A stretch of 63,126 nt of DNA, filler included, from Hausera hauseri (Eukaryota): NCBI GenBank assembly GCA_046269625.1. It is 9 parts of 9 records of this genome, joined end to end, with 100 filler letters (N's around TTAATTAATTAA, not from the genome) between each part and the next. Parts side by side here need not be neighbours in the genome. Positions count along the whole stretch, not along the records: positions 20,219 to 24,537 come from JBJURY010637886.1; 8 more parts are not named here. One strand, 5' to 3'. Shown piece by piece: positions 7,421 to 58,740 of the stretch. Below the pieces are notes generated by a model. That model did no database searches, had not been told where the DNA came from, and saw nothing but the letters and a program-made list of their open reading frames with translations. The first letter of the stretch is position 1. Each line of letters begins with the position of its first letter. A program made the position numbers and the translations under genes.

Positions 7421-7572
7421 TCGAAAATTTATTCCAACCTAACATTCACGACAGAAATCAACAACACAACACCATCGGAAATTCGTACTAATCCCCAGTT
7501 GTCGTTTCTTTAACCGTGCGTTGACAATTGTTAGCAATCGAATTGCGGTAGTCAATTCGTCATTAACTTTAG

Positions 7573-7720
7573 CATCATTCTACCATTGACCGGAGGCGGA
7601 TTGACGCACTTCAGTCCGCATCAGCAGAATCTACAGTGCGATTCATACACGAGTGGCAGCGGTTCCGGTATGCCGTTTCTATTACAGCGAACAATCGCCA
7701 GACAAGTTCAGCTAATCAGT
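7573..7720 (+). pseudogene. Isolated exon fragment of a TGF-beta/BMP type I receptor (GS box)
   Basis: TSGSGSGMPFLLQRTIARQVQL is the canonical GS domain. TTTAG acceptor at 7572. No GxGxxG kinase sequence follows. Confidence 0.85.
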
Positions 7721-8529
7721 GCAAACAGCGCCAACGAAGCGCATCCTCAAATATTGATTTTATTTGTAGTCTTGATTTTCAAAGAAAAAAATTTCCGTGT
7801 TGATTATGAAACAATTCAATGTTTTCAGTTTTAAACCGATCATGTTGCTTTCACTTTATATCAGTAATTAAAGCAATTACAAATAAATGAAGAATTTAAA
7901 ATACCAGTACAAATACTCTCAAAAATATGCAACAAAAGTCTGCCGAAATAACTGACGAATGTGATGAATCTGATAGAGACAAGCTTAATGCAACAGTCAG
8001 AAATTAGCAAAAAATTTGGAAATTATATTCGAAGCATTCTCCAATATGCAGTACAGTAATCGTTATGTAATGTTAATAGATGACTTCGATGATTTTGCAA
8101 TAAACAACGAAAGATAATCACAAAATTCATACTGGTTGACAGAGGCACACAAATAACTTTTGATGCGGAAATGAAAGATAGCTTCTTTTATGTCAATGGA
8201 TATATGAAATGCAATCAAACAATCAAATCGTGGCTCGTTTTCAACGAAAAATCGCATTTAGATCTGAATCCGAAAGACCAAACTCACTGTGTAATCAACA
8301 AGACTTTTCTGTGAACAATCGAGATATTGATGGTTATTTTGATAAAATCCAAAATTTCGTCCATCGTACGCAGCAAAATTTGTTAAATGCATCAATTAAA
8401 AAATATTATCAACTTCATAGAATCTCAAAATTACAAAGGATTGCAAAATGAGCTGAAAGTCCAAATCAAAATGGACCATCAAAAAGCCACAGTCAGGAAT
8501 AAGTCAAGAAAAAACTTTAACGAATGATC

Positions 8530-12941: not shown

Positions 12942-13520
12942 TGGTTTTCGGTATACGTTTTCGTAATACTATGGAACATCATCTTTTGGTTCCTCATTTC
13001 TGTTTCGTAGAAATCGACTACTACTATTCCCGATTCTCTTCCTTTTCCGGTATCATATTCACCTCCTTTACAGTATCCAGCGTGCATATCCTGTTTTCCA
13101 ATAGCTACTTTATATACTCGAATTATCTTTCCTAGCTGGGCCTCCAGCTCCATTCCATCTCATCTCAATCTTCCGGTTTCTTTAGCCTGTTTACACTGTT
13201 GTCGATGTAAATCCATAGGTAATAGCGGTGTCGTCGGTTTTACTATCGACGAGTGTCCGTGTATGTTTCCACAGTGGAAAATACTTCGGGATCGTCGCAA
13301 CATGCAGTCCATTCCGTCTGTTGCAATTAGTTCGCGCTGTTGATATAAAAAGTACCTTTTTTCAATCGTTACTAACTTGTGAGGTCTGGCATCTTCGCAT
13401 AGTTCCAAATCCATTAAGGAATATCTTTGTCCAACCTTAAACTTATCGCAGTCATATACTGTGATTGCACCGAGCTGTCTAATTAGCATCATAAGCGTTA
13501 TCAGTTTAATCATCCAATTT
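12942..13520 (-). pseudogene. Chuvirus-like fusion glycoprotein N-terminus with internal signal peptide
   Basis: WMIKLITLMMLIRQLGA hydrophobic signal, then VYDC..YSLMDLELC..C..IFHCGNIHGHSSIV..C..ETG, matching the chuviral G pattern (YDC..SLLD..EC..CGMHSHxSIV). One in-frame stop at 13160. Confidence 0.82.
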
Positions 13521-14019
13521 GATTCATTATCTCGCATTGAGCTAGTTGGTATTAAATTTCTTACCACATCTTCAATTCGAGTGGTCGGTCTGTTTCCATC
13601 TTCGTCATCGAATATCTTGGACCAGTTTATCTCTCTAGGTACCTTGCTAGCAGCTTTTCGTATCAATCCAATGGTTCTATTAAACTCATTTTCCTTTAAA
13701 GGGTTGGTTTTGATTGCCAAGTACAATATTACTTTCCTTAATTCTTCCTTAGTATTCTCTACCATAACTTTCTCAATTAGAACTTCGTCGGATAAGTCGC
13801 TTTTATTCATTTTCAACCGAAAGGTTCTCATAATCTTCGCAGCATCATATATCGCTTTTTCTTTTTCGTCTAACATCTCGTTTCTCGGTCCTGAGTAGTT
13901 CACTATTTTGATAATGTATCTCAGCAACTCGTTTAACTCCTCGCTAAGTTGATCGCGGGCATGGATAGTTGCCTTAATTCTCGAATTAGAACTGCGCTTT
14001 GGTCAATATCATCTCTTAT

Positions 14020-14454
14020 TTTTCTTGGCCTTCCAACTGGTCGTTTCTGTTTCGGTGCCGTTGATATCATTTCACTCATCGGCACTAGATTCTTATCGTA
14101 TTGTTCCTTATCTTCTTCACTCTGCAGGTAGTCGAAGTACATGACGGGGTCTCTGACTCCCATAATGCGTCCTACGCAATGTTCATCCCGCGCTTTTCTC
14201 GTGGCCTCATCTTTTGTCTGTTCGTCGGTAATTATCGCCACTATACGGTTTGTTTCTTCTGGAATAATCCCAACATCTATTAGTAGTTCGGGGTCGTCCA
14301 GTATTCTACCTCGGAAATATAACCGATAATTTACGTCATCTTTTCCACCGTTTCGTACTATCCATTGTTTTACTGCTCTAACCGATGTCGTCGTTGTGCA
14401 TTCAATTTCTTTTTCCTCCATCCATTCCGTTGATATTTTTACATTAACCGTCGT
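14020..14454 (-). CDS. Ubiquitin-like domain followed by an AT-hook, within ORF 13933-14850
   Basis: TTVNVKIS..TTSVRAVKQWI..YRLYFRGRILDDPELLIDVGI matches the ubiquitin fold pattern; KRPVGRPRK is an AT-hook. Confidence 0.75.
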
Positions 14455-15037
14455 CTCGGGTTTAGCTTTTAAGAAATCAGCGTATTTCTTTATCAGTAGT
14501 CTGGGCACTGAGCTATAAACAGTATTTTCGCTTGATAGTTTTGTCAATGTAGGGATCAATTGTCTCAATTTGCACTCCGTCATGTTGACGTTAATCTGCT
14601 CAATTAATTCTTTCTCAGCTAGTGCAGGATCTAATATCATTTCCACGTTAAATCGTCGATCGATGGGAAGAATGTCTGTTGGTTGAAGTTGGATGGGCGT
14701 CTTCGGATTTTGGTTATATAACTCTTCTAGGTAAGCATCCCATCCTGAGTCATCTGTGACATCTGGAATTCCACAATCTAGATCTGCCATCGGCATGCTT
14801 CGTGCATTTTTACGAATTTCATTTAGTCTTGGCTGTATTTCCTTCATCAAGTTAGTTCGAAACTCTGTTCCATTTCCACACGCAATTTGTATCGTTTTTA
14901 ATGTCGGTCCTAGTTCATTTGTAGGGAATAATCATTTCCTTTCGTAATCCGTTAATTCAGTCGTCACATCCGTTAACCATCTTTGTACGAATTCTCTTTT
15001 ATTCAATAATTCCGATTGCGTGATCTTATATTTATTC

Positions 15038-17013
15038 TTATAAGTCTCCAACTCTGCCTAATTCATCTAGCTTCGTAGCTCTCTGTTTGGTACGAATTCT
15101 CCATTCTTCTATGTCTTTAACTTGTGCTGTCAATTGTCGTGTCGTATCGTCATCTATTTCTGCCATTGACGATAATAATGAAATTATTTTGTGCATTTCT
15201 TTTAGAGTTTTTGAATCTGGATCTATTTCTTCCATCAGTCTCTTTACGAATCTGGCTTCGTCTAGTGTGAGGCGATGATCTTTGGTTATTTCTATTAATT
15301 CCGCGTGACAATTCTGGTCGGTATCCGATGCCCACTCAATAGGACGATGTAGATATTTTAGTACTTCTTCTATCGCTTTACGATGCTTGGGATACATATC
15401 CAACGTCGATAGATCATCTGTGGATATTTCATCTATAGGCCTTGTTATCAATTGTCGTACACCTTCCAGGCGGACATCTTTTAGTCTCATCGATAAGGAG
15501 GAGATCTTTTCTTGTTTCGACGATAATTCCATCTCTTCGATCGTGGTATACAATTCTTCAGTAAGTTTCATTTCTTGATTGTTACTCATAATTCTTAGTC
15601 TCAATAACGCGTTAAATTCAACTCGTAATTTTGCCTCTATTTTGTAAACATTTAGGTTACGCAGTATTTCTTTTAGCTGTTGCTTTAATATGGGTTCACG
15701 TTCTGAGTATTTCCTTAGGCGATATCCCGTTACACCCATTAATCTATCTATTAAATTGATCCATTCTTTAAGTTGGTTGTCAATTATAGGCTTCGCGCAT
15801 ATCACATTATCTAGCCTTTCATAAGCGTCGTTCAATTTATCATCTGGACCTTTTATATAGTCCATTATTCCTTTTACGTAGTTAATTTCCTTCTTATATT
15901 CGTCCAGTTCTAAAATACATTTTTCCGTTATACTTTGTACTTCTTGGTTTTCCGCATACGTTATTTTAGTCTTACATCTGTAGATCTCGGAGCGCCTTTT
16001 ATCTTGCTCGGCTATGCGAATTCCTATATTCGCATATTCCTTTGGTGCGTTGAACGCGATCTTACACATCTCAATTATAAGGGGAATGTCTACAGGTTCT
16101 ATGCCTAGTATTGAAAGTTCATTTTCATCCAATTCATATATTGGTTTATTTTTAAGATGATAGATTACTGCGCTCTCTATTTCTACCATCACCTTCGCTA
16201 AATTTCGTTTTGTTAGTTTCTGGTTCGGGTGTTTCCAGCGTCTTTAGTAATGCTTGGGCGGTCGCCATTTTATTCTTAATTTCTATTTCTTGGTTATTCC
16301 ACGTCTCTATGAAATCAACTCCGCTTTTTATCCACGAATCTAGCTGTGTCTTCCATTCTTCAATTGACTTTTCCGTAATTTCGTACTTTTGCTCTGGTTC
16401 TTTCTCTTGGTTCAGGTCCTTCTCGAGGAACTGTTTAAATTCTTTGTACATTCTTTCGGCGAATTGCTGTTCATTTCCTGACACATCTACTTGAGTTTTT
16501 ATACGCCTTAATTCTTCCAGATTGTGACGTATTGTTTCCGTATCTGTTGGTGCCATTCTAATCTCTTAATTTATCAGCATTTTTCCAGTACTTTCTAATC
16601 CTCCATACCTTCCCATCTAGCTTTTTGATTTGTTCCGTGCTATCGCTTTCGCTCTCAAGTAGTGGACATATCTCGTTTATCTCACTGTTCGCGTCTCCTG
16701 CTGTTACGCTAGTGCTTGGAATTTCAGTAAGCTCCACACCTGGAGTGTTTAGGCTCGGAATGTCCTCTATGTCCACATCTCGGACTTGAATTATTTCTGC
16801 ATTATCTCTTTTTATTGGCGATCTTGATCGACCCTTCGACTTCCTTTTTAGTGATGGACTACGACCTCTATTTTTCGTTATCTTAAGGACTAATGGGGCT
16901 ATATATTCGCTTTCGATTTCGTCAGCCACATTTTGACGTCCTTCTGTCAGGTTTTCGGATCCTGCGTCCAACTCTACGTTGGACGATGTCGTCGTTACCC
17001 CGACTTCGGTCAC
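15038..17013 (-). pseudogene. Long acidic/helical region of unknown function following gag
   Basis: ORFs 16558-17013, 16152-16556 and 15038-16192. The first is in frame with gag across a single TGA. E/K/I/L-rich, with an RS/SP basic patch (RGRSPSLKRKSKGRSRSP). Confidence 0.6.
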
Positions 17014-17022
17014 TTCTTTTAT

Positions 17023-18372
17023 TCATATAGGCTTTTCAGGCACACTCTTTTTACGAATCATATTACTATTGTCTGGCGCTATCAAATATTCATATTTCGT
17101 TCGAGGTTCAACTAGTCCGTGGTATACTTCTAATATTCGTAAGTTATCTTTATATTCTTTTCGAGCCTTTAGGATTTGCGGATTATTTGTTTCATGTTGA
17201 CTTTTCAAATATCGACGGGAATCTTGAATGTCTAAGATTGCGTCTATGTCACCTCTGGGACCGTATTTCGCCTCTAAATCTTCTTGCGTCTTAATCATAC
17301 TTGCTTTAGTCGGTTCAGTAAATGAAACACTTCGCGGATTTGGACATGATCTAGCTATGTGACCTTCCTTGCCACATGTATAACATATTAAATTTCCATT
17401 CCTACCAACCCGCTGTCGACCGTCCTCGTTTACGGGCGATTTTGTACGACTGTCGTTTTTTGAGGATTCCATCCTACTACTTCCGTCGTATCTGTTTTCA
17501 TTGTTTCTGAAATCGTTGTATCTGTTTCCGTCCTTATATTTAAAACCTTTGCTAGTACTCTTATAACCATCTTGGTTGCTGTTCGGCTTTAAATTCCGAT
17601 TATTATCATCAAAGCTTTTGTTTCCATAACGTGGATTCCTATCCATCCTATTATCAAAATTTCTGTTTCGGTTAGGTTCATGGAATCGTCCACTATTTCT
17701 GTTTCTATCGCTGCGCTCATTGCGTTCATTTCGCTCAACGTTCCTATCGTGTCTTTCATTTTGCCTAGCATATCTGTCTAACGCCATCTCCAGGTCCTGT
17801 GCCAATTGTAATGTTCTCTCAAAATTCTCTGGTCTTGCTAAAATCAATTGTTTCACTAGGTCTCTTGACCAAATGCCGTTGATTAATTGTGTTGTCATCA
17901 TTACATCCAAATCTGACGGAACTGCCTTTTCTGCGGCTTTACGTTCGGCGTCATCTTTTGCCTTAGCCATATTTGAGATTCTTAAAGTACTGATATAACT
18001 ATTTGCTAACTTCTTTAAGGCAAACGCAAACTGGGTGACCGATTCGCCCTTCTGTTGCGTCCTATTTTGAAATGCCATCAACTTTTGTTGTGGAGTTACC
18101 GTCGGTAGTAATTTTCTATTTAATGCGCCTACTAATGACGACCAATCCTTCTTTTCTTCGTCCGTTAACTCGGCGTAGGCATCTGCGGCCAAATTCTTCA
18201 AATAAAGCGACAACCGTTTAATCATCTGCTGAGGTTCTAACCCTATGCCTTCAGCGTGAAGTTTATAAGTCCTTAAAAATTCGTTCAGACCTTCGGGATC
18301 GCCGTCATATGCCGGTAAATTTAACGATTCATACGTAAAAATGTCTAACTTCCGTCAAGCCGTATCTGTCAT
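17023..18372 (-). CDS. gag: Gag (capsid plus CCHC nucleocapsid) of the family B element
   Basis: LPAYDGDPEGLNEFL..; RTQQKGESVTQFAFALKKLA major-homology-like motif; CYTCGKEGHIARSC knuckle. In-frame ATG at 18372 with one early stop. Confidence 0.9.
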
Positions 18373-18744
18373 TTTATTCGTATTTGCGTTTGTTTCTTTT
18401 TCTACCTTACGTCGATCGATTACTTCAGCCGGAACTTTAAAATTTGTTTCTAATAACTCTGTTAGATTTTCTCTGGACTTGGACAATGTACGCTTTTCGA
18501 CTGGACTCGTTCGTACTCTACTACGGGTTCGTCTAATGTTTAAATTTTCCTTACCGTTTAGGTTTAAATAGTCTGTTCTATTATGTCTGTCAATATTTGC
18601 GTTTTAGATTCCCTTTATTTAATACCGGACCTTATATCCCAATTTTATATAACCTATTCGTTACAATTAATTGGTGTGATGCGCTAATCGCTGGGTATGT
18701 CGTTTTAATTAACTCTGAAGTAACAGTCTAGCGAGGCATAAACT

Positions 18745-18762
18745 GTCTTGCTAGGGTCGCCA
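18745..18762 (-). promoter_or_regulatory. Primer binding site (possibly tRNA-Arg type)
   Basis: TGGCGACCCTAGCAAGAC starts 2 nt after the LTR end ..TCTAACA on the minus strand. Confidence 0.75.
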
Positions 18763-18764
18763 AA

Positions 18765-19575
18765 TGTTAGATTTTGGGTTGAGCCCTAACTTCTCCCACT
18801 ATCTAACAATAGTTTTTAATATTTTTGTAGTGCAGGTTAGGTTTACCGTTATCGGTAAATCAGGATGTGCCTTACTAATTAATATACTGTGCCGGTACTG
18901 CGTGTGAAATCCTGTGCGGAATTTTTAAGAATTCTCTCCTAACTATATAAGTTACACTGAATTTTATAACATTAAGGTAGTCCAATCACCCTTAAGGGGC
19001 AAAGAAAAACTATAAGAGAATTTTAGAAAAGAAAATATATTTTACCAAATAACAATTACGTTCTAACGTTCAGTATCGAATACAACTTTCAAAACTGTCT
19101 GCAATATCTGCGATAACGATGCTACAATAACTCGTCAAATTATTCGGATTCAGGACACTTCTCCTTCAAATATCGAATATCGTTAAGGATCTAATTCCGA
19201 AATCTTCTAGAATACTGTATTCGTAACAACAACAATTCTTCGGAAATTCTCTCTGGAATCGGAATCACTTGTTTTGTCAACAACTCGCAAGTCAACAACG
19301 ACTGACTGACTGTAAAATCCATCGGCTTATATACTAACTAATTTGCCGATTACATAATTTCCGTTTGATTTAATATCGATTAAATTCCATTTTCTTCGAT
19401 TTCAGATGATTATTTTGATTGCTAAGTGGTGTTGCACATTTTTTGCATTTCGTAATTCATTTAAAATTCCGATAACCATTAAGTATTTCACATAAATTGA
19501 TTTACATGTACTAATTACATAATAATTCGATCTCATGCTACTACTGGCTATCAATAATATGTACATACTATAACA
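18765..19575 (-). repeat. 5' LTR (~811 bp) of the family B element
   Basis: Begins TGTTA, ends TAACA. TATATAAG at ~19330 with TCAGT initiator-like repeats ~25 nt downstream. Abuts the PBS on one side and unrelated capsid sequence on the other. Confidence 0.8.
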
Positions 19576-20118
19576 CAATGTATTGGATGGGGAAAGAAAG
19601 CAGATCCCAAGAAATGGACTGAGAAATTCAGTATTATTTCTCTATGTGGTCCATTAAATTTTGATTTCTTCAATCAACCGAAGTATTTGATTCCAGGTGT
19701 TAATGTCGATATAAAATTAACAAGAAATCCATGTGATGTAATTTTAAAATGTGTTGCACCAACTGGTACTGATGCTGCTTCGAAGACGATAAAACCGGAA
19801 ATATATTTTCAAGAAATCAAATTATTAGTTTGACGTGTAAAGGTGGAACAGTCAGTTTTAGTTGGACATCTATTGGAACTTGAAAAGCAGAATTCAATTT
19901 ATCCAATTATGAAATCGAAAATTTGTCACATATTCAATAGGAAAGGGTTCAGTGTATGAATATAAGGACAATTTATTTTCTGATGAAAGACTTCCAAAAT
20001 TTGTCTTAATAACATTTATGGAAACATCACAAATCAATGGTGATTACTCAAAATATTGTTCGGCTTTTGTTCACAAAAATGTAAAGTCTATAACATTAAG
20101 TCGACAAATGGACTATCG
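19576..20118 (+). pseudogene. Polinton/Maverick major capsid protein fragment
   Basis: LCGPLNFDFFNQPKYLIPGVNVDIKLTRN..IKLLV*RVKV..IYPI..DNLFSDERLPKFVLITF..GDY..F.HKNVKSITL, the typical Polinton double-jelly-roll capsid motifs. One stop and one frameshift. Confidence 0.85.
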
Positions 20119-20578
20119 NNNNNNNNNNNNNNNNNNNNNNNNNNNNNNNNNNNNNNNNNNNNTTAATTAATTAANNNNNNNNNNNNNNNNNNNNNNNNNN
20201 NNNNNNNNNNNNNNNNNNCGAAAGAAGAGTAAACTCAGTACACCCAAGAGTGGCCCCAGAACACCTGCAACAGAACCAGAGGAAAACCAACCTGTGAAAG
20301 TTTTTGACGAAACCATATTAGAACAAGTGATGCGAGACACGGGTGTAGATCTGGACGAGGAAGATGACATTGTTCAATCAGTAATGACAATCGATCCTAA
20401 AAACTTAGTTGACGACGACAGAACAACTACTACGATATTTAAGTTAATCGATAACAAAATATCGACACAGAAACTGGATGAGATTTTGTTTCAACTATTA
20501 CTACTTGCCCATGATACGAGTCCAGTGAGAGAAATAACACGCACAGTGCTAGCTAAAGTCACCGAAGATGAAAAATGA

Positions 20579-20953
20579 ATAAATATAACGGTAAGGATAA
20601 CCTTGAGATAAGGAAATCAAGAGATGAGAGTCATCAGGATGAATAAAACAGATGATATACTAACATTACGGGAAAAGATCGGAGAACTAGAGCCCTCCTA
20701 TAAAGAGAAGACATATAGGCTGAGTTTCTATGGCAGAACATTATATAGTTACGATAATCCATTAAGAGTGGGATGTAGAAGTGAGAAATATAACCCAATT
20801 AGGATAACAGAAATACATGCGGATACAAGAGCTGAAGAAACAATAGGAAATATAATAAGGGAAATTCAACCCCAAGACATAGAAGAGCACACTATAGGTG
20901 ATATACAGAATGTCACAGTACAGATGGAGGTTAGAAGAAAGGGAAGACCCAAA
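20579..20953 (+). pseudogene. Ubiquitin-like domain plus AT-hook-like motif
   Basis: INITVRIT..DDILTLREKI..YRLSFYGRTL..LRVG..NPIRIT; RRKGRPK. Confidence 0.65.
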
Positions 20954-21130
20954 GAAACGAAGATAAGTGACATCCGGAATAAACGGGATAGAAATAAAGA
21001 AATAGTACGGCGATTGCCATTGGCAGGAACTGACTCATTACCGGAATCCACAGATATAGATCCATTGTTATGAACGTTGTTAGAAAAATTACACATATCA
21101 TTTGCATCCTTCGATATGCAAGTTATGATC

Positions 21131-21440
21131 CCTAAGGAACTGTTTCAAACATTACGAAACAACATGTTAAGAATTAGTAGGCAATTTTACGAAAATATTG
21201 ACGAAGAACAAATCAACGAATTACATGAGCAAGACATATTAGAAAAGATGTTCGCGGCAGGAATTACGCGAGAAAAAGTACAAACAGCTGTAGCCTACTT
21301 ATTATATAAAGTGATTGCTATCAATCACCAGACCCAAAACTTAGAAGAAATTGAGCGAAATATTAAAGCAGCGGTTAAGGTTCTAAAAGACACATTAGAA
21401 AATTGGGTCCAATGTAGAGGTGGATGGGTGACAAGTCTAA
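21131..21440 (+). CDS. Bcl-2-like domain
   Basis: BH1-like EKMFAAGITREKVQTAVAY and BH2-like LENWVQCRGGW at Bcl-2-like spacing, preceded by a BH3-position helix LRNNMLRISRQFY. Confidence 0.65.
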
Positions 21441-21547
21441 TGAGTAACGTAAGAAGACCAGAAGGATATGGAGGACTAGCAGAAACGCCAACCGCCGCAC
21501 AGTCAAACCTACACACGCCAAGACAAGGCGTAATGGGAATGACAATC

Positions 21548-23549
21548 ATGGAGATTTTTCTGTTAATTTTAATAACGTCGTTGTTGATGCCAAAGGCCAT
21601 GGGAATTGTAGCATACAATTGTTCAAAACCTAAAGAAGGTCGGAAGTACTCCTTAGTTGATCTAGAAAAATGCCCTAAAGCTGATCCAGAACAATTGACG
21701 ACGACCAGAGGCCATAGATATTGGATTTACCAGGAGTCTGAATTTGTAAAAGTCAAGATTAGGGAATGTTGTGTAAATAAATCTTTCTTCCTGTTTAATT
21801 GCGCATACTATTCTGGAAATTCTGCAATAATTGAACCAACAACACAGTTCGAACCAATAATAATATCGCGTGCCGAATGCCAAGATGCTTTTAAAGTCGG
21901 AGTAATAACGATACAGAATGCACAGATACCAGCAGTACGAAATAAGACAAAATACACTCGAATCTTTAGAGCTGGAAAAATAGATAAAACGAGGGAAGGC
22001 ACGTGTAAAGAAGTAGATTACGATGTTGGAGGAACGATAGCACCAAGATCAGTTGCAATAGAAGATTACCAAGTTCAATTAAAGGAATACGAAGGATTAT
22101 TCGACTCCCAGACTAAACTCATGACGACAATGTGCGAGTGCGAATACGAAAGCGGCGAATGTGATACCGGCGAATCTAAAATGACTTGGGAAGTAACTTC
22201 AAATAGATGTCATTTAACCCTGCTGAAAGAAGAAAAATTTAATAAAACAGTCGAAAAAATAACCGAAAAGGAAACAACAACATATAAGGAAGGGATCAAA
22301 AAAGTAAAAATGACGGAAGTCGCAACGATAGTATACTCAGAAAATCCTGAAGAGATGATGCGATTTAAAATTATAGGAACAATAAATAAATGCGATGAAG
22401 AAATATCCAAAACTAACTATAAAGGCATTTATCTTTCACTTAAGGAAATAGCCCAAGCAAAGACTAAGATAAACAAAAGGGTTATAAAGTAAACGCAGTA
22501 TTTTGATAATAAGATTGAATTTTTAATCAACTATGTTAGAAAAGAGATTAGAAGTCTATATATAGAAATAATAATGAACGAATGCAAGCTAAACTATGAA
22601 ATCGTACGGAATAAAATAGCTTTAGTAATAAAAAAAACCCCGATATGGTAGCACCAGTAAGGCCATTCGGTGATGGAGTTATTGAAAGAGTAATGGTATG
22701 AAGTACTAATAATTATTGAATGTAAAAAGGTGGAAGTTATGATAAGACCAACGGACGAATGTACGTCGGAGTTACCCGTGATTTACCACAGAGCCTAGAT
22801 ACGTTATGCCCGTAACTAGGATATTGCTAGACGTTAATGTAAAACCCATTCGGCTGGATAACTGTACCTTTAACATGGCACCTATGTTTAAACTAGATAA
22901 GAAGACATGGATCAGGATGCCTAAAAGAGAAACAGTACCGAAACCAGAAATGTTAAGTTTGATAAATTTACAAAGGAATCAGAAATTTGAACCACTTACG
23001 GGAATATCTCAAGGAGAAATTTATACACAACAAAATTTGGAAGATTACCGACGGATTCTGTTATTTCCTCAACAGAGACAAAGAGTAATAACGGAATTAA
23101 CAAGAAGGGTGATGTGGGACGGTGAAGGCTCACCACAATAGAAAAACCTGATGGGAAAAGATTATTTAAAGAAAGTTACACGGAATATCATGGAAAAGAT
23201 GTGGGGAAAGTTCTTGTATTTTGGCCAAGCAGCCTCAGGATTTCTTGCTATATCTTTTATCATTATAGCACTAAGAACGATATTCACCACCCTCAGTAAG
23301 GCTTATGGCATACATGCAGCAGTAGGCTGTTCTTGTAAGATTTTAATAGCAGTAATACAGGCCGTAGCTAGTTGTTTTCTAGCGAAACATGATGCTCAAT
23401 GGAAAAAGAAAATGTTTAAAGAAAGAAATGAAAGGAATTCCTTATATAGTAATATAAATGACAAAAACGATGATGATGATGACCCTGAGGTTAAGCCAAA
23501 AAGCGATAAATATATAAAGAGATGGAGACGTCTTTCATTAAAATCATGA
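21548..23549 (+). pseudogene. env: Essentially full-length chuvirus-like envelope glycoprotein
   Basis: Signal MEIFLLILITSLLMPKAMG; AYNC..YSLVDLEKC; CEYESGEC..W; TNYKGIY; YFDNKIEF..LY..NECKLN; EVLIIIECKKVEV..CTSELPV; GEIYT..LEDYRRILLFP; hydrophobic WGKFLYFGQAASGFLAISFIIIAL and second hydrophobic segment. Confidence 0.88.
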
Positions 23550-23675
23550 AAACAGAAATACAAACAGAGATTGGTAACAGATTTATCGCAACTAGACTTA
23601 GCAGAGGACGGACGAGTCTATAACGAGCAAGTGATGGCGAATCCATGAGCTCCTCAGTATTAGATACACGGAGGA

Positions 23676-24523
23676 ATGTATCCCATGTATCAGATACTAC
23701 AAATAAAAAAGGGTTATGACGATAACATTAGACCATATAACCATGAACCGACCTGCAAAACAACGAACAAAAACGAACCACAATCACCTCTAAGGCCAGA
23801 GATAAATATAGAAGTAAACGGATATTCACTAACGGCCTTGATGGATACAGGATACACAACCACAATCATGGAAGAAGATCAGCTACCTAAAGAATTAAGA
23901 AGAAAGCTAAGAAAACCGAACACAACACTAATTAATGTGGGAGCATTTGGTACAGAAGAAGAAATAAGGATGGTCCTAGATGCGGAAATAAAAATTTGCA
24001 ATCAAATAATAAGTCTCACTATCAGAGTGGCTAAGAATTTGACCAGCGATATAATAATCGGATGCGACATATTAAACCACTTAGGGAATGCCTATATCGA
24101 CTTAAAGACGGGTCAATTAAAAACCTTTAACAAGGATCAACATGAAGGATCAGCTTCATTAATACAGGATGTCGTAATCCCCCACGTTCCGAAATAATAG
24201 TGCCTGGTTGAATAGAAAGTAAACTACTTGCCACGTACATACACTTCGAACCATTCTCACGAACCATGGAGAATTACGATATCATCATCGCTCCACACGT
24301 AGACAAAGTGAGAAATGGAAAGATTCACCTACAAATTTGCAACACTGGAAACAAGGAAAAACGATTAAAAAGAAATACAAGTTTGGGACAAGTAACGGAG
24401 ATCGAAGAAACACTAAGAGAAGAAACTAATTCAGTCATATCAGATGTAGATAAGATAGAAGTAGGAGGAAAGGAGGAGTTGGCCCCAAACCCCCCCCCCC
24501 CCTCAGGGAAGGAAGGAAGCTAA
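23676..24523 (+). pseudogene. Retroviral-type aspartic protease and the following beta-rich region (start of pol)
   Basis: IEVNG..ALMDTGYTTT..IIIGCDIL; followed by VVIP..LQICNTG..L.RNTSLGQV, a segment common after Gypsy proteases. Confidence 0.88.
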
Positions 24524-24796
24524 TGGGAGGAGAACACNNNNNNNNNNNNNNNNNNNNNNNNNNNNNNNNNNNNNNNNNNNNTTAATTAATTAANNNNNNN
24601 NNNNNNNNNNNNNNNNNNNNNNNNNNNNNNNNNNNNNCATTTAACAGCAAACTGATTTCAATACAATTTTGATATTTCATCTCATTTCCATCTGACAACG
24701 CTACACTTGATATTCTGAGATTACACTTGATATTTACATGGTGAGCAAAATCCTCCAACCGATACGCTAAGCCCTCCAGCGTGACCACACCTTAAG

Positions 24797-27700
24797 CACT
24801 ACATCACACCCCCGTGACAAGATGAGGACTATGAAGAAAAAAATAAATGAAAATTATAGTAGGAAAAGGAGAACTTGTATCTATTCGGTTTTGGTACGTA
24901 TAAGACGTTAGATTCCATCTATGAACTTCTCCCTGCTGTAAGTACTAAATGTCACTTGGCGTGAGTTGTTAGATGCTACTGGTGCTTGTGCAGGTGTTTG
25001 AGGGAGAGATACTGTTAATTGTGTGGTGTTTTGGGAGGATTCTTCATGAAGAAATAAAAGTGAAAAAGAAGCTGAAAAGGAAAAAAATTATGCGAAGAAA
25101 ACGAAACTGGAGATGGCAGCGAATCGTGCGATGAAGGTGAAATGAGTAATGGATGTGCAGGCGAAGACGGAGAAGAAAATGGTGAAGGAGCAGTGGATGA
25201 TGACGGAAGTGATGAGAACTGATTGTGACGCGAGAGTGAATGCTGCGGAAGATTAAAATCATCAAGGAAATTAGATGATTGCTCGAGGGTAGAGAAGTTA
25301 GAGTTGGGATTTGAAACAATGCTGCTGTCGTGGTCATCTTTAACAAAGAAGGCTGGCTTAAGATTAGAGATGTGTACGTTGTAAGGTCTGTGCTTGCGTA
25401 AAATAATGGCGATATGCGAAGAAGGGTTTAGTAGTTTGTAAGGGCCAACGTATTTGGGCCGAAAACCAGAAGGTGGCGGATCCTTCAGCCATACAAACTT
25501 GGCTGAATATAAGTCTTCGGGAATATAGGATTTGCCATTATTTATGAGGCGTCAAAATGCGTTTGAGTTGATATCTACAAAGTGTGACTGTCGCGCACGA
25601 ATAACTTCATCTGACGGGCTTTTATAGAGATTGGAGAGCTCAACTAGGGCACGAATTTGTGACCCAAAAAGAGCTTCAGCTGGAGCACAGCCTGTGGTGG
25701 TGGATGGCCAACCTATTAGGACAAGAGGAAGAATTGAGGTCCAGTTATGATTGTTGTTTGCTAGTATTTTTAAGGAAATCTTCATGGTGCGATGAAATCT
25801 CTCGAAAAAAACATTTGCTTTGGGATGATACGGCGTCGTATGGAGATGGGCTATCTCCAAGTGCCTTACAAGATATTTGAAAAAATCAGCTTCAAATTGC
25901 GGACCCTGGTCCGTTATGATATGACGTGGTGAGTCAAAACGGCTGACCCATATCTTGGTAAATGCATCTGCGACTGAGTCTGTGTTGGTTGCTAGAAGCG
26001 GAACGGCTTCAGGCCAGTAGAAAGCACGATCCATTATGGATAAGATATTTTGATAATCATTGTCGGAAGGTAGAGGACCCACAAGATCCAAATGCACGGT
26101 TTCAAAACAAGAAGTGCAAAGGAGGTGGTAAAGTGGTGGTTTGAGTTGTTTGTGGATTTTATATTTCTGACATGCTACACATCTCTTGACCCAGATCTGT
26201 ACTTCGGTACGCATAGTTGCCCATAAAACATGGCGTTGCAATAGACGAAATGTGGCTTTTGAACCCGAATGATGAAGAAAGTGAAAACGAGTGAAAGCTG
26301 TCTTTTGTAACGATGGAGCCAGAATGATTTTCTTGTTGGTCGAGTTGGAAGGTTTGCCATCAATAATTTCAAAAGATTTAAAAGCTGGGAGAATAACAGA
26401 CGATGGTTCATTACTTCTCAGGATTTCAGATGAAAAAATTGGCTGAAATGTAATTGAGTTGACCGACCGCGACCGAAAGTCTGCTATTAAATTTTCGGTG
26501 CCGGAAATGTATTTCATAGAAAATCTAAATGTCGACAGGTATGATATCTGTAGCTCCTGTCTGGGTGATGGCTGTTTTAACGTCATGATATAAATTAGAG
26601 ACTTGTGATCGGTCTGGATGGTAAACTGACGAGATAGAAGCAAATGCTTGAAATGCTTTACCGCTAAAACTACGGTCAGGAGTTCACGATCGAATGTTGA
26701 GTATCGGCTTTCCTGTTGCGTGAGCTTTCGGGAATAAAATTCCAATGGTTCGTCAACATCATTGTATATTTGGTGTAATATTGCACGAGTGGATGTGGTT
26801 GTGGCATCGGTAGTTAATATCAGTTCCGAGTTTGGATTTGGAAAAGCCAAGATTTCAGCGGTTTTTAAACCTTCACGAAGGCGATCAAATTGATTTACTA
26901 TATCGGGAGTCCAATGGATTAATTGTCTTTTCGTGCTGGGTGAGAGGTGTGCGAAAGGTGCAGTTAGCTCGGAGCAATGTGGAACGTATTTTTGTACGAA
27001 ATTCAATGTCCCTAGAAAACTCCTCATATGGTAGTCGTAGTTGGTATTGTCACATTTTTTAATTGTTGTAAGCGATCAGGCTGGGGCGAATGCCCTTCGA
27101 GAGTAATTATGTGGCCTAAGAAGTTGACGCGTTTCCGGAAGAAAGAACATTTGGCGAAATTTATTTGCAGGTTGCTTTAATGCAATCTATGGAAAATAAT
27201 TCTGAGGTTATGATGATGTTGTTTGATGGAGCTGGAAACGACTAATATGTCACCTATGTATGGGTAAGCAAAATAAAGACCTGAGAGGACGGTTTCAATG
27301 TGGCGCTGAAAGGTGTGAGATGCACTACGTAGGCCGAAAGGCACGAAGATGTATTCGTAAGGCCAAATGTTGTGATGACAGCAGTTTTTAAAATGTCATC
27401 AGGAGCGACAGGAATTTGATGGCAGGCCTTGTGCAGATCAATGGTAGAATAGGCATTGGTGTTGTTGAGTCTATGAAGAATATCTTTAATGAGTGGTAGT
27501 GGATAGGCATCTGTAATAGTTAGATTGTTTAATTGTAATTAGTCGCCACATGGCCTATAGGTATCATCTTTCTTTACCACTAGAAGAAGAGGAGAAGCCC
27601 ATGGTGAATTCGATCGCCGAATGATGCCAGACCTTTCCAGTTCCTGCTTAATTGACATCCGTATTTGCAAGTGACCAATAGATCATGTGCAACAAGAAAA

Positions 27701-29380
27701 TCTGAGCCTATTATGAGTGATTTAATGTTGGCCACGTGGAACTTCCAAATAAATTTATCTGGCAAGTTGGCGAATGTGAAAGTCAATTCCGTGGTTCCTG
27801 CAACGTGCAACGGTTGACCACTGGCAGTGAAAAGCGGTGGACAGGAAATTATAGTCGACGTAGGAACGAAGGACAAGGAAAGGAGCGAAAAGGCAGCTCC
27901 TGAGTCTATAAGGAAGTCGATATATGAAGTGTCTCTGCATGACAGTACAGCTTTCAACAGAAAGACTGTAGAGGCGGTGTTGAAACGGCCAGAAGGTTGA
28001 GCGATATTGCCTGCGCAAGAATGTGTCGTAAAATTTGGCGGCGTTATTAGTTTTTCGAAGGTTTTGGAGAAAAGGAAGAAAATGAAGAATTGCGAGGAGA
28101 TTTATCGTTGTAATGTTTACAACCAGGCACACATAATCTAGCCCATGACTGAAACTTATTGTAATAGACGCAAATGGGGTTGTCCACAGCATACCGTTCG
28201 CTGTAGAACCGACAACCAAAAAAACATTTCCGAGCATCCCTTCGAAATAGCGTGTGATAAAAGCAAATCATGCGTCCGCCAGGTAAAATGGATCGAGCAG
28301 AATATCTGGAAATGCTTCTCTCCTTTGAAGGTCTGGTTTCACTTTATCGAAGCCCATTAAGATTATTTAGTTGGGTAGTAATGGCCAAAATCGACTGCTG
28401 CAACTCGTCAAACTGTTGCTGCATCATTTGCAATTGTTGTGAAGTGTTATCTGTGTCTGAAGGTGTGAGCGGTTGCTGCCGCTACTGGTTGGTGACTATT
28501 AGATTGCAAAATGTCAAAGCTTTTGTCTGCCAATAAGGCGAGATTTTTAAGGACCGTTGAGAAGTCTACTACAGTGAGCCGTGCTCCGATGAAGGTCGGC
28601 AAGGATGAAAGAAACTACCGACGAAAAATATCGGCATTGTTTATAAGAGTGATGCCTAACGAACTAAGTTGAGATATTGTAGTTTTAAGGAAATCCGATG
28701 GTTTTTGATTTCCGATGGCATGTTCATTAAAGTATTTCTGAATTATGATGTCAATGGAAGGGTCGGTAATGTGCAGAACTGATTCATAAAGCATATCATA
28801 TGGATTTGAAGAAGTTAGTATGTCGGTCAGATTATTGATTTGCTGCTTGATATTAGCTGGAAGTAGTAACAACAAACTGTTCGCCCGCAAGAAGGAATGT
28901 GATATGATTAGCCTTAAGTTATTGCAAATGGAAATGTAAGCAGGTACGATTCGAATTCGTCTTATCGAGAAAAATCTGTACAGGGGAGATTTGGAGATGT
29001 AGATGGTGTGGGGTCGGCAGGACGACGACCAGATCTGGTCTTAGTGGGGTTTTCCACATAGGAAGGATCGGGGTCCGATCCACCCCGTAAGCGAAAGTGA
29101 AGAGTGAGGTGGATAATTTTGGAAGAAAATGCAGAAAGTTGGTCATTGAGATTGAGTATAGAACCATGATGTGAGATAAAAGTCTGACAAGTTGAGGAGA
29201 GAGGATAGATGTGCGTGAAGGTGATGAGAGGTATACGTGTGTGGCACATAGAAGGTATGGAGGTGTGTATTATTGAGGAATATAAATAGGGAAAAGGGAC
29301 GCGGCGCAGTGGGGGCGGTCACGCTCGATTTCTCACCAAAATCATTGATAGTTCTGTCTTGATCCGGGCTAGCATAGCTC
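24797..29380 (-). mobile_element. Decayed Ty3/Gypsy retrotransposon (family A, copy 2)
   Basis: Gag (28047-28890) with double knuckle; FLIDSGA protease; RT YPYIGD; RNase H LTTDAT; integrase HLDLVGP, ITDQG; purine tract GGGGGTGTGA plus TGTAGTG at 24803. Collinear with 1810-7420. Confidence 0.93.
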
Positions 29381-29814
29381 TGAGATGACATATTGCACTC
29401 CTTAACCAGTTAAATGATGGAATGTCGATTCGCAAATGTTTATCATAACTACCTTTTGATAAAGGTGACTCGGGCAATCCTATTTGGCGTTTTTGCTTCA
29501 ACGTAACTGATCGCACTGATCCTTGAACAGTATTGACAATTTATTTTTTATGGTCCATATCTGCCAACATTTCATGGAAATTTGTGGCATTCGGGAAAAC
29601 CGTTTTAGCTTGAGATGTACGTGTAAGGACACTTTTGCTAAATAAATGCGGTTCAGGATCTCTCCCAGTTATGCATTTTCTACATGTCAATTGATATACA
29701 TATATTACTCCAAATATATCGTGAATAATGAACAGGATGTTATCCGGCCAACATCCCCTTGCACATATGTTGATAACATAATCATTTTTTTGTTATTGGA
29801 GCTTTATCAATATA

Positions 29815-29991
29815 TTTCCGCAACAAAGACCCATGTTGCCAAATTACGAAGCTGTCTGAGTATTGTGAAAGACGAAATTGAGCCCGATTGAACAAACCCG
29901 ATGGTAAATATTCGAACTGGTATAGTAAATTTGATACTTTAACATCAACTGGCAGCAAGCAAGGAACATAATTGAACGATGCTCCTGGTAC
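29815..29991 (-). pseudogene. Roco-family COR domain fragment
   Basis: VPCLLP..YQFEYLPSGLFNRAQFRLSQYSD..IWQHGSLL. Confidence 0.65.
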
Positions 29992-30150
29992 AGTTGGACC
30001 GATACACATTACCTGTTTTTTATTAAAAAGCAACTGTTCGGTAATTTGAATAAATCGAACAATATCGATTGTTGGAACAATTATATCGGAAAATTTTGTT
30101 TCAGGTTTAATAATAAATTCAGGCATATTTTCTATCCAGTGAACCAATTT
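29992..30150 (-). pseudogene. Axonemal dynein heavy chain fragment (just before the AAA3 P-loop)
   Basis: W....PEF...PETKFSDIIVPTIDIVR....EQLLFNKKQVMCIGPT, truncated inside the GPTGTGK motif. Confidence 0.8.
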
Positions 30151-30799
30151 CATTTTCTTGTCCTTTTTAGCTTCTCCTTCTTGTTTATTACTTTCGGCTG
30201 AATTAAAAGAACTAATTATTATTTTGAAAAGACTTTCAAGGTTCTCCTGTTCGGATGACTTTGAAGAATTACTATCAGTAGCCAAGCCATCAACTTGACC
30301 CAAATTTGGAGTGGTTCCCATAATGGACTGAGTCTCCTGATTGTACTCACTATCCATATCATCATCACCATTGTTCATANNNNNNNNNNNNNNNNNNNNN
30401 NNNNNNNNNNNNNNNNNNNNNNNTTAATTAATTAANNNNNNNNNNNNNNNNNNNNNNNNNNNNNNNNNNNNNNNNNNNNTACTAGGGATGCACTCTATAT
30501 CTACATTAACATCTGCATTGGCTGCTGTAATATTTTCACATGTCTGTATCAGTCTGATAAGTAACATTGGGCTGATGGTAATATATGTTGTTTATTTCCA
30601 TCTTATTGCTGTTCATGTTTGGGTTTCTGGGGGCAGAAGGGATTGGTCATGTGGTATTTGTTTTCTCAAGTAAAATTGATACTGATGCAGGACAGGTGTG
30701 TGTGATGTTTACCTGAAGTAAAGAAGCAATGCCAGAAGTGTACTCATTTTTTCAGACTTGAAAGGGTATGGAAATATATGTATAACTTAAATACATATC

Positions 30800-31610
30800 A
30801 GTTGCTGCAACTTACATCAGGTTCTTCTGTGGTTCCTGATTGTTCACCTTGCAATCCATGAGGATTAAAATCGTAGTAGGCTCCTTGCTGTAAAACAAAA
30901 ATGTATCAGATAAAATCCTAATACATGGGAAAAGTTCAATAAACTGAGACAAGTAATAAAGCCTTGGTTTTAATACAAAAAAGGGATAATAAAGTATAAA
31001 AACAAAACCATCTAATTTGACTCCTTAAAATTTCAGCTAAATTAAAAACACATGTGAATTAAAATTAATTATATGAATTTTCTTTGACTTTGACTAACTA
31101 TTATAGTAAAATCACACAAGAAAAATGTATCATGCTGTGTTTCTGTGTCATGTTTTTTTAAATACTAAAAAGTCAGTGCTTACTGATTCCTCAAAAGCTG
31201 TACCACTATCAGTGTTGTTGACCTCAGTACAAGTTTTTCTGTAAAAAAAAATGGAACATGACATTAAACAGCTTCACTCCAAAAAAAAATGTCAGTAACC
31301 TTTTATCAATAAACTGTTAAAGAAATTTTTTAATTAAGTCACCTAGTCTAACCTTAGCTTATAACATATTTATTATATTAGGTTTTCACAAATTTTAAAA
31401 CCAAACAGTATCAAGTGGTATTGGAAGTTTTAACTTTGTAACTGATTGACATATAAAGCCTTTAGTTATTTCACTCTATACGTTTACCATTGCATGGAAG
31501 GCTTGTATGTCAAGAAATATATTAAGCTGGTAAAAAAAGTCACTAATGCTTCCTACAAAAAACAATACAAATAAGCATGCGCAAAAATAACCTACCTTTT
31601 CTTCCATCGT
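30800..31610 (-). CDS. 5' exons of a gene divergent from the BEN gene
   Basis: ATGGAAGAAAAG|GTAGG near 31607, plus small exons with GTAAG donors near 31180 and 30815. Confidence 0.35.
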
Positions 31611-31759
31611 TTTGTTCTTGCTGGAACTTCTGTATTTTCAGCACCAGAAAAAGTGTATTTTCTTTTTAATCGGTTCATTTTTCCATCAATACATTTTTTT
31701 AAATACTGCGCGCCTAAACTTTTATAATGAGCAGCAATTGGTCCACCAAGTCAAATCCT

Positions 31760-31835
31760 TTGACAGACAGTGGATTGGAGCCAATCATTCAACAGGTCAT
31801 GATCCAATCAAACACAAAGGGGGCGGGACTACTTG
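31760..31835. promoter_or_regulatory. Bidirectional promoter-like segment
   Basis: ATTGG/CCAAT boxes (~31773-31785, ~31804) and GGGGCGGG GC-box between two divergent ATGs. Confidence 0.4.
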
Positions 31836-31908
31836 TACCGGTCAAGACGAAAAAAAAACCAGAAGACCCTCGACACAAGTTTCTGCAAGGAGTTCAAAGT
31901 TCGTTAAA

Positions 31909-34900
31909 ATGTCAAAGTTACGGTATGCGCTTGTTTCTTGGACAAAAGGTTGCGATAAAGATGCTGTCAGCATTGTCCCAACGAAGTGGATTGTAGACTT
32001 TGACTCTGAAGATACCTCCAGAGATTACCTGGTGGAGTGCCGATCTGCTAACACCAAAAAGCCTGTGAATGGCTGGCCAGTGGAACATGCCGTGGTGCTT
32101 CAGCTAGCAGGTGAGTTAACAGTTTTTATCGTGTACACTGTGTTATAAACATTTAACTATAATAAGTTACGCTGATATTGTTATCAGTTAAGGTTATATA
32201 TATATTCTATAACTATTTTGTGCGTGGTTCAGTCAGAAAAAAAATCGACAGACATGGGAGCTAGACCAATTAATCAATGATTTGAGTATTGAATGAACTA
32301 AACACATTTTTCTCCATTATATTTAGCTGTTCCGTGCAGAAATGTACAGTTAATATTTATTTCACTTGGTTTATGCAGAAGAATAGCATGGATTGTTCAA
32401 TTTTATAAATAAGTCTGTCCTAAACATAATTAAAGTTAGTTTAGGGCCTCATATTTGCTCTTAAGTGCAGAAGTACTGTATTTTTATTCATCATGAGTTT
32501 GTTTTAATGTATAATATGAGTGAGGTATCTTCAATACAAGTAAATGTCGTGCCATCATACCTTAAATTAAACTGATTGTTTTACAAAGAACATGCTCCTG
32601 CTAAAATACTGATTGAAAGAAATAATTACTTCTGTCACTGGTCTAAATGATGGTTAGTACTTGACCATTTGAAAGCTTTTTGTGTTTTTAACCAGAAAAA
32701 CATCTAAAATAATTATACAAGAGTTTAAAAAGTTTTTTTCGTCAGGGAGTTTTGGCTGCAATGAATTTAATTAAATGTTATTTTGCCTATGTCATTGCAG
32801 AGAAAGAATCAACGCTAAAAATTGCTGAGAAAACTCTACTTAAAGTGGACACACCAAAAGAGAATAAGGAAGCCTAAACGATTATTCTCTGAAGAAAACT
32901 CAACCGTCAGTGGAGATGAAACAAATCGTGACATCCCAAGAAAGGTACATGACTATTTCTAATAAACACATGAGAAAAATGTTCTTGTAAGGACAACTTT
33001 TAGAGGCATTATTGTTTGAGTACTTTGGATTTTTCTACACAAAAATACTATTTATGTGAACATTGTTAACTTCTCAGAAAGCAGCCAAACATGCTGCAAT
33101 GAAACAAGTGGAGGAAGAAATTCTTTTCCAAGAGAGGCCGCTTTCACCAGTATTCCGCAGTCCAGGTGAATCTCCCAGCGAAGAAAATGCTGCCAAAGTC
33201 AGAGACCTTCAGAACCAGGTTAAGGCTCTTCAGAAGGAAAATTCCCGTCTGCGCAACTTGGTCATAAATGGTAAGAATCACTTTTAGAACATATATTTAT
33301 AGACCTCTCCATATTTTTCGACAATAATTGCCACAGTGCAAAGAAAGGCATTATCTTCAACTTTTTGACTTATTTTCCAGTAGCCATTTTGACAGGAAAA
33401 AAGAGCCCAGTTGGAGAAGTGCTGCTTTATTACACTTCTTCTCTGTGTTTGGAAAAATAAAAGGTCTATAAAGTAAATTTGTTAGAGTATTGTTATTCCC
33501 TAAAAGATTGAAGAACTTTTAAAATCAAATCTTTTACAGCTAGAAGCACTCGGCGAGTGCAAACCTCCACCAATGCCAATTTCCCCCATCCAGCAACAGA
33601 GTTAATGTGCAAAACAAGAGATGGGAACAAATTTGCTGCAGTTCTGACGTAGCAAACATTTAAGCAGGCATTGGGATTAGTTCCCAGTTGAGTCCAATGT
33701 GAAAAAGAGTCAGAGACTCGTCACCCAACGTAATTCATCCACAAACTCCTCATGAGGACCCAGCCCAGCTGGGCCGCGTGGGCCACAACCTCCCTGGGCC
33801 AGGTAGGCTGCCCTAAACTGCTCTGAAATGAGACGGTCTACCCTGCGCCTGACATCGGCTTCACGTGGGTCTGGGTGACCACGTCCTCCCCCGTTACCAT
33901 AGTGATCAGTTTCATGACGGACTTAAAATATGTCGGTACGGTTATTTACATGTCTTTTTACTGGAAGAGTAACTTCACAGTTAAAATTTACATGTAAATA
34001 AATAATAAAAACATTAATGATTCTGGTTTAGCTCCAGTATCTATGACAGATTTTTTTATTATCATGACAATAAAGTCATAATATTATGAGAATAAAGTTG
34101 TGATATTACAAGAGAAAAAAAATCATATTCTTTCATGACGTGTTTATTTCCTCCTTATTTTCTCCACACCGTCTGTGTGTGTGTGTTTATAAAGTAGTCT
34201 GACTGTTCACTGTAAGATTACCGGTAATATGCTTCACTGCATGCGTTTTCCTGTAAAGGCTAGAATATGACTTTATTCTCATAAAATTATGACTTTATTC
34301 TCTTAATATTGACCTTGTTTTTATATGACGTTAATGTAATATTATGAGTTTACTGTCGTAATTTTAAAAAGTATAAAAGTCTTTTTATGTGGCCATAATA
34401 AAGTATCACCGTTGCATTTTTATATTTAACATGTTACTGCAGCATAAATTTTATCAGGAAAGTTGCTCAACTCACTTTTAAAAACAATTCCTTCAGTCTG
34501 TGGTGAATTTCCAAACGCCGACTCGTTGAAAAGATAAAAACTCCACCATCTTCGAGTTTATTTTGCTGCCTGTGCATTGAATTCTGGGATAGCCTCGGCC
34601 GGTGAGCATACATGGATGCATCCTTGGATTTTGAGAGTTTGTTGGGCGCATTCCTTGGCCGCATGGTGAGGAGTCTTCGGATTGGGACAGTCCTCCGCGC
34701 GGGGCAGTGATGTATGCAGCCGACAAATGTGCACTCATGAGGACCCCGCCCGTGAATTAAGACACAGCCCAAAAGTAGCACGGAAAAAAGTACCATGTCT
34801 TGTATTTATAGAAAGTTAAGAATTTTGTCTAAGAACGCCAAATAAAACATTTCTATGTCCACCAGATACAGTAGGAAATTCAAGAAAGCCCCTTGGGGCT

Positions 34901-37134: not shown

Positions 37135-37539
37135 CAAACTACTAGTTACTAGTTTATTTCCTATTTACTAGTTGGGGCTGTTCAAATGCAAGCACAAATG
37201 TTACAATGTTTGAAATGTTAAAAAAAGAAATATCTTTGTTTTGTTTTACTGTATCCCTGACTAAATGTGAAAGTTAATGCAAAAATATTGTTATAAAATT
37301 TTGCAATTTTGTCTTTTATTTTGGTTATAAATCACATCTGCTTTTCTGTCTTGCTCATGTTTACATGATTCACATTGTGTGTCATTGTTGGGAACTAGTG
37401 CACTTGTTAAAAATTTTTTGTGTAAAGGAATAAAAGTGAAGTTCCACTTTAAAATCTGTATCCTGGTATTTAATCTATTGTTAAAATGTTTAACTGTTCC
37501 AACGCATGTGTGAAATGTCAATCCTTTGACATAGAGAAT

Positions 37540-58739: not shown

Positions 58740-58740
58740 T

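Follow-up and report, generated by a model that had tools for sequence, protein, structure and literature searches.

The window, by which we mean the whole 63,126-nucleotide stretch of DNA that was analysed, is made up of nine contigs with N spacers between them, and the segment of interest lies on the contig at positions 20219-24537. On its plus strand this contig carries, in order, a helical region, a ubiquitin-like domain, an AT-hook-like motif, a Bcl-2-like domain, a signal helix, a fusion glycoprotein and an aspartyl protease. The ubiquitin/SUMO-like domain (20633-20764) was recognized by PF00240 (E = 0.018), a family that also matched two related elements described below, P0001 (E = 0.031) and copy 1 (E = 0.00098); all three matches fall below the curated cut-off. 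Just before it, at 20282-20575 (plus strand), lies a helical domain that had no useful Pfam match and is 22-24% identical to P0001. The AT-hook-like motif, RRKGRPK (20933-20953), was recognized from its sequence between the ubiquitin-like and Bcl-2-like domains, and at the equivalent site of copy 1 PF02178 scored E = 0.19. The Bcl-2-like domain (21074-21436), with about six predicted helices, was delimited by its PF00452 match, its BOK match and its conservation in P0001; the Pfam-matched core covers nt 21146-21427. It is followed by a hydrophobic helix (21530-21586) and by Env (21605-23549), a class III (Monjiviricetes/gB-type) fusion glycoprotein matched by PF24664 on three successive pieces of 21074-23549 (E = 2.6e-19, 4.6e-13 and 2.1e-16), with C-terminal hydrophobic segments within 23142-23549. 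A retroviral-type aspartyl protease with a DTG motif (23664-24197; PF00077, E = 1.7e-10) lies downstream of Env on the same strand, which gives the order gag-env-pol; having a class III fusion glycoprotein ahead of the protease is a mark of GAG-ENV-POL gB-type Ty3/gypsy errantiviruses. The contig begins downstream of Gag and ends at 24537, with neither reverse transcriptase nor integrase on it, and the frame just before its end (24212-24523) had no dUTPase match in Pfam or PDB.

This copy is decayed. An in-frame stop where the Bcl-2-like region begins (21071-21073) was evident from the frame translation, at a place where P0001 is open; further stops occur at 20576, 20609, 22490 and beyond, and a frameshift lies near 22780 in Env. 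The stops and the frameshift mean that the copy at 20219-24537 is dead, and the stop at 21071-21073 that it cannot make the Bcl-2-like domain as part of a polyprotein. An earlier note on this DNA had placed the domain inside a retroelement polyprotein, which is correct for the open frame of P0001 but not for this interrupted copy. The element family is clearly highly repeated: 12,275 contigs of one run (X1) aligned to the stretch, most of them at less than 95% identity, and 1,425 contigs of a second run (X2). Contigs of X1 covered all 30 bins of the stretch, the Bcl-2-like region included, and no single contig among those listed spanned it. X1 may have been the source sample, and the summed depth does not translate into a copy number. 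The Bcl-2-like domain is a normal part of the element family.

Word-indexed protein searches and a HMMER search over 1.84 billion representatives returned a sole relative, P0001. This protein of 1,130 residues comprises, in one open frame, Gag, a CCHC knuckle, the ubiquitin-like and Bcl-2-like domains, the hydrophobic helix and the fusion glycoprotein; the knuckle lies at aa 197 and BH1 at aa 689, with about 490 residues in between. No locus of the element was found in IMG/VR, nor among JGI metagenome contigs, where none of 595 pattern matches was confirmed. Little can be read from these blanks, or from those of the protein searches, as such collections represent animal repeats poorly.

A more distant lineage, copy 1, is found in the window itself (12942-20118, minus strand), with Gag, a ubiquitin-like domain and an Env that is 31-35% identical. 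Its Gag (17023-18354, minus strand) has a CCHC knuckle (PF00098, E = 5.7e-7) and matches aa 21-218 of P0001 (E = 9e-17); a knuckle-bearing Gag is thus seen upstream in frame in P0001 and, with breaks, in copy 1. Between the ubiquitin-like domain and Env, position and hydropathy revealed a helical segment followed by a signal helix (13457-14002, minus strand). At 18754-19445 (minus strand) lies the probable 5' LTR of copy 1, which by eye runs from about 19434 to 18765 with TG...CA ends, was seen at one end only, and is directly followed by TGGCGACC, a primer-binding-site-like motif. The flank of copy 1 (19550-20118, plus strand) holds a broken frame that appears to resemble the major capsid protein of Polinton/Maverick elements but was matched neither in Pfam nor in PDB. 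In copy 1, more than 500 residues (15038-16565, minus strand) lying between Gag and the ubiquitin-like domain are predicted to be coiled or helical; this region had no confident Pfam match and may be the counterpart of the Smc-like region of the Burro elements discussed below.

The stop-to-stop frame 21074-22492 does contain both motifs that the earlier note had read in the segment. The first, EKMFAAGITREKVQTAVAY (aa 57-75, nt 21242-21298), contains the BH1-like FAAGITREKV (21251-21280), which in the alignment to BOK has a BOK-type AGIT start; the second, LENWVQCRGGW (aa 108-118, nt 21395-21427), aligns to BH2 of BOK and Bcl-xL and has the BH2 pattern L..W....GGW. Their order and approximate distance were correctly read, the measured gap being 32 residues where about 35 had been given, and the BH1-to-BH2 spacing equals that of BOK apart from one or two gaps of a single residue in the alignment. 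In the Pfam search that the earlier note had named as a check, the segment had PF00452 (Bcl-2) as its top-ranked family (E = 2.3e-5 to 3.5e-5) and the match spanned profile positions 8/9-100 of 100; the score nevertheless missed the curated cut-off (25.3 versus 31.4 bits), and copy 1 had no match. The segment is therefore classed as Bcl-2-like and not as a canonical Bcl-2-family member. Matches to PF00452 were obtained for 2 of 21 translations of the window, both from the region of the segment, and in a focused Pfam run for three of seven (the segment twice and P0001 once); two further sets, one of 20 translations (E up to 0.01) and one of 6, gave none. Over the same segment of P0001, PF00452 again ranked first (E = 0.0021, 19.0 bits).

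Searches against solved structures pointed in the same direction. Of the four best PDB sequence matches, two were to BOK (E = 0.013 and 0.14), one to Bcl-xL (0.14) and one, at 0.28, to an entry that bears the name "Bak protein". BOK again came first with a two-sequence profile of the segment and P0001, though adding P0001 made the match no stronger (E = 0.083 versus 0.013). The best solved match is BOK (Bcl-2-related ovarian killer; PDB 6ckv, 5wdd) over helices 3-8, with which the segment shares the AGIT of BH1, the GGW of BH2 and their spacing; it differs in that the match reaches only E = 0.013, in that the Trp-Gly of BH1 and the BH3 motif are absent, and in that its anchor would come from the Env signal. 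In an Atlas feature search, three Bcl-2-clan clusters ranked first (0.84-0.85), which we take as a lead only.

Structure prediction was less informative. As the earlier note had held, the segment is all-helical in both AlphaFold models, made alone and with P0001, whose mean pLDDT values of 49 and 59 are of low confidence. Foldseek found no match for these weak models at E = 0.001 or better among PDB entries and viral models. Bcl-2-family chains made up 28 of the 43 PDB rows listed, with TM of 0.39 or less and in a bank rich in such entries; the top viral row (E = 0.5), a BCL2-like protein from an iridovirus, was not counted as evidence. VIA-align placed unrelated helical bundles first (Z 8.3-8.7) and Bcl-2, Bcl-xL, NRZ and BAK at Z 5.3-6.5. 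The best superpositions of this group, on Bcl-2/Bcl-xL (Z 6.5, rmsd 4.7), are probably out of register because the identity is 2-6%.

It could be argued that an amphipathic helical bundle has come upon a GGW tripeptide by coincidence. Indeed, the Pfam scores lie under the curated cut-off and the fold searches were non-significant, and the second Pfam match of the segment, to Spo0A_C (E = 0.003), tells of helical noise. However, two lineages that are 45% identical both rank Bcl-2 first, over some 90 of 100 profile positions, BH1 and BH2 stand in the correct order and spacing, and a BCL2-like domain is annotated at exactly the same position in planarian elements in the available part of PMC6431247. 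Coincidence thus appears improbable. The several Bcl-2 tests agree with one another, though they are not mutually independent, and by sequence the likeness of the segment to Bcl-2 exceeds chance. With PF00452 as its top family and 45% of its residues kept in P0001, the segment is very probably a divergent Bcl-2 homologue in the polyprotein of an LTR retroelement, much as the earlier note had supposed.

We then compared the segment with P0001 residue by residue. Without any gap, 53 of 117 residues were identical (45%), with 11 of 20 in BH1/helix 5, 13 of 27 in helix 6 and 9 of 14 in BH2, where the W and CRGGW are unchanged. In 40-column windows, identity was 44-52% over the domain core, 35-62% over Env and 20-42% over the upstream and linker parts. 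That the core exceeds the upstream and linker parts suggests, as far as such a comparison can tell, that the domain was under selection during the active period of the family.

Copy 1 behaved differently. The part before its signal helix had no Pfam Bcl-2 match and no usable Atlas match. It showed weak in-register similarity to the Bcl-2-like copy, in a comparison where 10 of 1000 shuffles reached the score; against P0001, 102 of 1000 did so. This agrees with the earlier observation that copy 1 keeps only a helical pattern and one Trp in this region, and judged by these alignments the likeness of copy 1 to the Bcl-2-like segment is positional only. Since copy 1 lacks recognisable Bcl-2 motifs at this site, the signature appears dispensable in at least one lineage.

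The state of the BH motifs bears on what the domain may do. The start of BH1 reads FAAGITREKV here and FSAGITWGKV in BOK, whereas P0001 has MGTGISRNKI; at the core, TREK here and SRNK in P0001 correspond to TWGK in BOK, so that Trp and Gly are absent and the basic residue is kept. The NWGR signature with its Gly and Arg, which the earlier note had taken as the yardstick for BH1, is found neither in the segment nor in P0001, and BOK's FSAGITWGKV is the closer standard for FAAGITREKV. The BH3 motif has the pattern LxxxGD. By eye, no such motif was apparent in the alignments, and Pro stands at the expected Gly in both lineages. The Gly of BH1 is important for interactions of the Bcl-2 family (available part of PMC9027176), and because BH1 lacks Trp-Gly, classical BH3 binding by the segment is doubtful. 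In the same source, ORFV125, with SPGR in its BH1, can still bind a BH3 peptide, the binding being about 250-fold weaker. The captured Bcl-2 proteins treated there, KsBcl-2 and ORFV125, resemble our case in being a Bcl-2 fold within a parasite genome; they are, however, free-standing genes of DNA viruses that keep Gly-Arg, unlike the segment, a polyprotein domain without the Gly (PMC9027176).

These losses leave room for a Bcl-2-derived domain that has turned structural or otherwise non-apoptotic, acting as a matrix or budding adaptor at the end of Gag nearest the membrane, where the Env signal helix would tether it to the ER, or as a block to innate immunity. There are precedents for both: in foamy viruses the leader peptide of Env acts as a matrix/budding adaptor, and groove-less poxviral proteins of Bcl-2 fold block innate-immune pathways. 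Both lineages have lost Trp-Gly of BH1 and the BH3 but keep about 45% of the helical core; copy 1 has a helical segment of similar length with a Trp in register and no Bcl-2 signature; and three elements share the fixed place beside the signal helix. Yet no parts are better kept than the BH2 (W...GGW) and the beginning of BH1, as expected if a Bcl-2 surface matters, and related elements carry other apoptosis domains (PMC6431247, in the part available). We regard a structural or non-apoptotic role as the strongest alternative, though a rather unlikely one. The preference for BOK, an effector-type protein, as best PDB sequence match and the BOK-like start of BH1 raise a further alternative, namely a BOK/BAX-like effector that would permeabilise membranes for particle release or for the killing of element-silencing cells. 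Against such an effector, the BOK match is weak and a BH3 motif for self-activation was not seen. Helix 5 is also only moderately hydrophobic, with no peak above 1.0 in the frame 21074-22492 and one of 1.27 in P0001, and viral Bcl-2 homologues are described as pro-survival in the abstracts consulted. An effector therefore appears improbable.

By a modest preference, we favour a host-derived divergent Bcl-2-family domain, built into the Gag-Env-Pol polyprotein of a Ty3/gypsy errantivirus that is compact and Burro-like; the domain would be tethered to the ER and dampen cell death. Pro-survival activity of the domain, judged from its sequence, is in itself an even call, and such an effect would probably take a non-classical route because BH1 lacks Trp-Gly.

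The hydrophobic helix suggests how the domain could be tethered. In the Kyte-Doolittle profile, the helix at aa 153-171 (21530-21586) gives a peak of 2.29, the sole peak of the frame, with counterparts in P0001 and copy 1; we annotate it as the internal Env signal and a candidate membrane anchor. The earlier note had put the segment directly upstream of the env signal peptide; the two are indeed near but not immediately adjacent, the helix starting 34 residues past BH2. In two lineages, the Bcl-2-like copy and P0001, the distance is 34-36 residues, and the idea that the signal helix could also serve as a tail anchor fits this topology. By eye, signal cleavage would fall near nt 21604, where small residues precede the conserved Env start in three sequences. 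As an internal signal, the helix would thread Env into the ER lumen; a signal peptidase cut on the lumenal side, behind the helix, would then free Env. The helix would remain as a C-terminal anchor and the Bcl-2-like domain, whether or not the element's protease releases it from Gag, would be tethered on the cytosolic face of the ER, in the topology of cellular tail-anchored Bcl-2 proteins. In intact copies the anchored domain could dampen host cell death, and so keep the host cell alive while a fusogen-bearing element is expressed, which would agree with the apoptosis cargo that Burro carries. We consider it likely that the signal helix doubles as the anchor of the Bcl-2-like domain.

The closest known systems are the giant planarian Ty3/gypsy LTR retrotransposons Burro/GYPSM1, as described in the available part of PMC6431247. 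In these elements, as here, one polyprotein holds Gag with CCHC, ubiquitin/SUMO-like and BCL2-like domains, Env and protease; copy number is very high and decayed copies carry stops and frameshifts. In particular, Burro-2, -3 and -4 of Schmidtea mediterranea have a BCL2-like motif (PMC6431247, citing Grohme 2018), which leaves the earlier view that Bcl-2 mimics are not typical of LTR elements without support. A Ubi2/SUMO-like domain precedes the BCL2-like one, a mononegavirus-type Env stands in frame between the latter and the protease, and a dUTPase-like domain follows the protease, before the reverse transcriptase (PMC6431247). The order Ubi2/SUMO-like, BCL2-like, Env, protease is found in our element too, the ubiquitin-like match being weak (E = 0.001-0.03). 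In contrast, ORF1 of Burro measures 4,873-5,140 aa (PMC6431247) whereas some 490 residues separate knuckle and BH1 in P0001, and Burro has two or three knuckles where we see one. The giant ORF1 also carries BIR, RING, MATH and ankyrin cargo; none of these four was matched in the covered part of P0001, in copy 1 or in the part of the Bcl-2-like copy that lies on 20219-24537. The element is very probably of Burro type, and it is a compact relative rather than Burro itself.

Apoptosis control has been reported for another of these elements. According to a second-hand account (PMC13465017, available in part), Burro1 protects stem cells from apoptosis via a captured IAP. This B-IAP (Lee et al. 2026) and our case have in common a gypsy element, there planarian, with a captured module, there anti-apoptotic and aiding stem-cell survival; the module tested was, however, a RING plus BIR acting on caspases and not the BCL2-like domain (PMC13465017). 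Our literature search, with Grohme 2018 and Lee 2026 outside its reach, returned no functional test of a retrotransposon BCL2-like domain.

GAG-ENV-POL errantiviruses with a gB-type Env occur in flatworms, nematodes and bryozoans (PMC13524379, available in part). Smed_errantivirus_1 to _6 share with our element an Env of gB/class III type between gag and pol and the multi-copy state, and by eye their Env has the same cysteine and YQES/REC/GTC/TGES pattern; the S. mediterranea GAG-ENV-POL elements measure about 14.5-18 kb (PMC13524379). Flatworm errantiviruses were annotated there in 3 of 55 assemblies, all from free-living species, and in none of 50 cestode, monogenean and trematode assemblies; the available portion of that paper makes no mention of Bcl-2.

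The composition of the window bears on the host. The CpG o/e ratio was 0.49 on the contigs 30480-38133 and 43016-59029, and 0.88-1.29 on the other seven, which include all retroelement contigs; on those of the element itself it was 0.92-1.29. This split means that DNA from two or more organisms is combined in the window, and that the source of the element is one whose DNA is not CpG-depleted. Fish was considered as the origin of the element and ruled out by the same comparison (0.92-1.29 versus 0.49). The short repeats of the two CpG-depleted contigs look teleost-like, which would make their source a second organism mixed into the assembly. The host of the element is probably a flatworm. Rfam had no match anywhere in the window.

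Other parts of the window hold further mobile and chimeric sequences. Two ordinary Ty3/gypsy copies (1-8529 and 24638-30379) have pol regions about 55% identical, and no env was seen in them. The end of a third element, with RNase H and integrase and a similarly A-rich coding strand, lies at 59130-63126 (minus strand); the frame 60352-61818 (488 aa) starts in a signal-like manner, matches Fn3 weakly (E = 0.12) and has a hydrophobic segment at its C terminus, and looks like a second surface protein. At 29785-30378 (minus strand), an open intron-less frame joins a piece of a dynein heavy chain (PF12775, E = 3.5e-7) to Roc-COR (PF25497, E = 4.8e-6), and near this frame a repeat (28463-28782 and 40849-41167) is 83-87% shared between contigs.

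The domain and its position are already published for planarian Burro elements, so that the discovery value is modest; what we add is the compact, decayed relative. A broader and still doubtful proposal would be that compact Burro-like errantiviruses carry an ER-anchored, BOK-derived regulator as their only death-control module, with no IAP. This regulator would be independent of the BH1 Gly and use the Env signal as its tail anchor, in a family much expanded in a non-planarian flatworm, possibly a fish parasite, where it is unannotated. With a Bcl-2-like domain that is 45% kept across two lineages and no IAP match beside it, the compact element is a clean object for tests of function, and it equally suits testing whether one helix can be Env signal and Bcl-2 anchor at once. 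Should the host be a parasitic flatworm, the known range of such elements would be widened.
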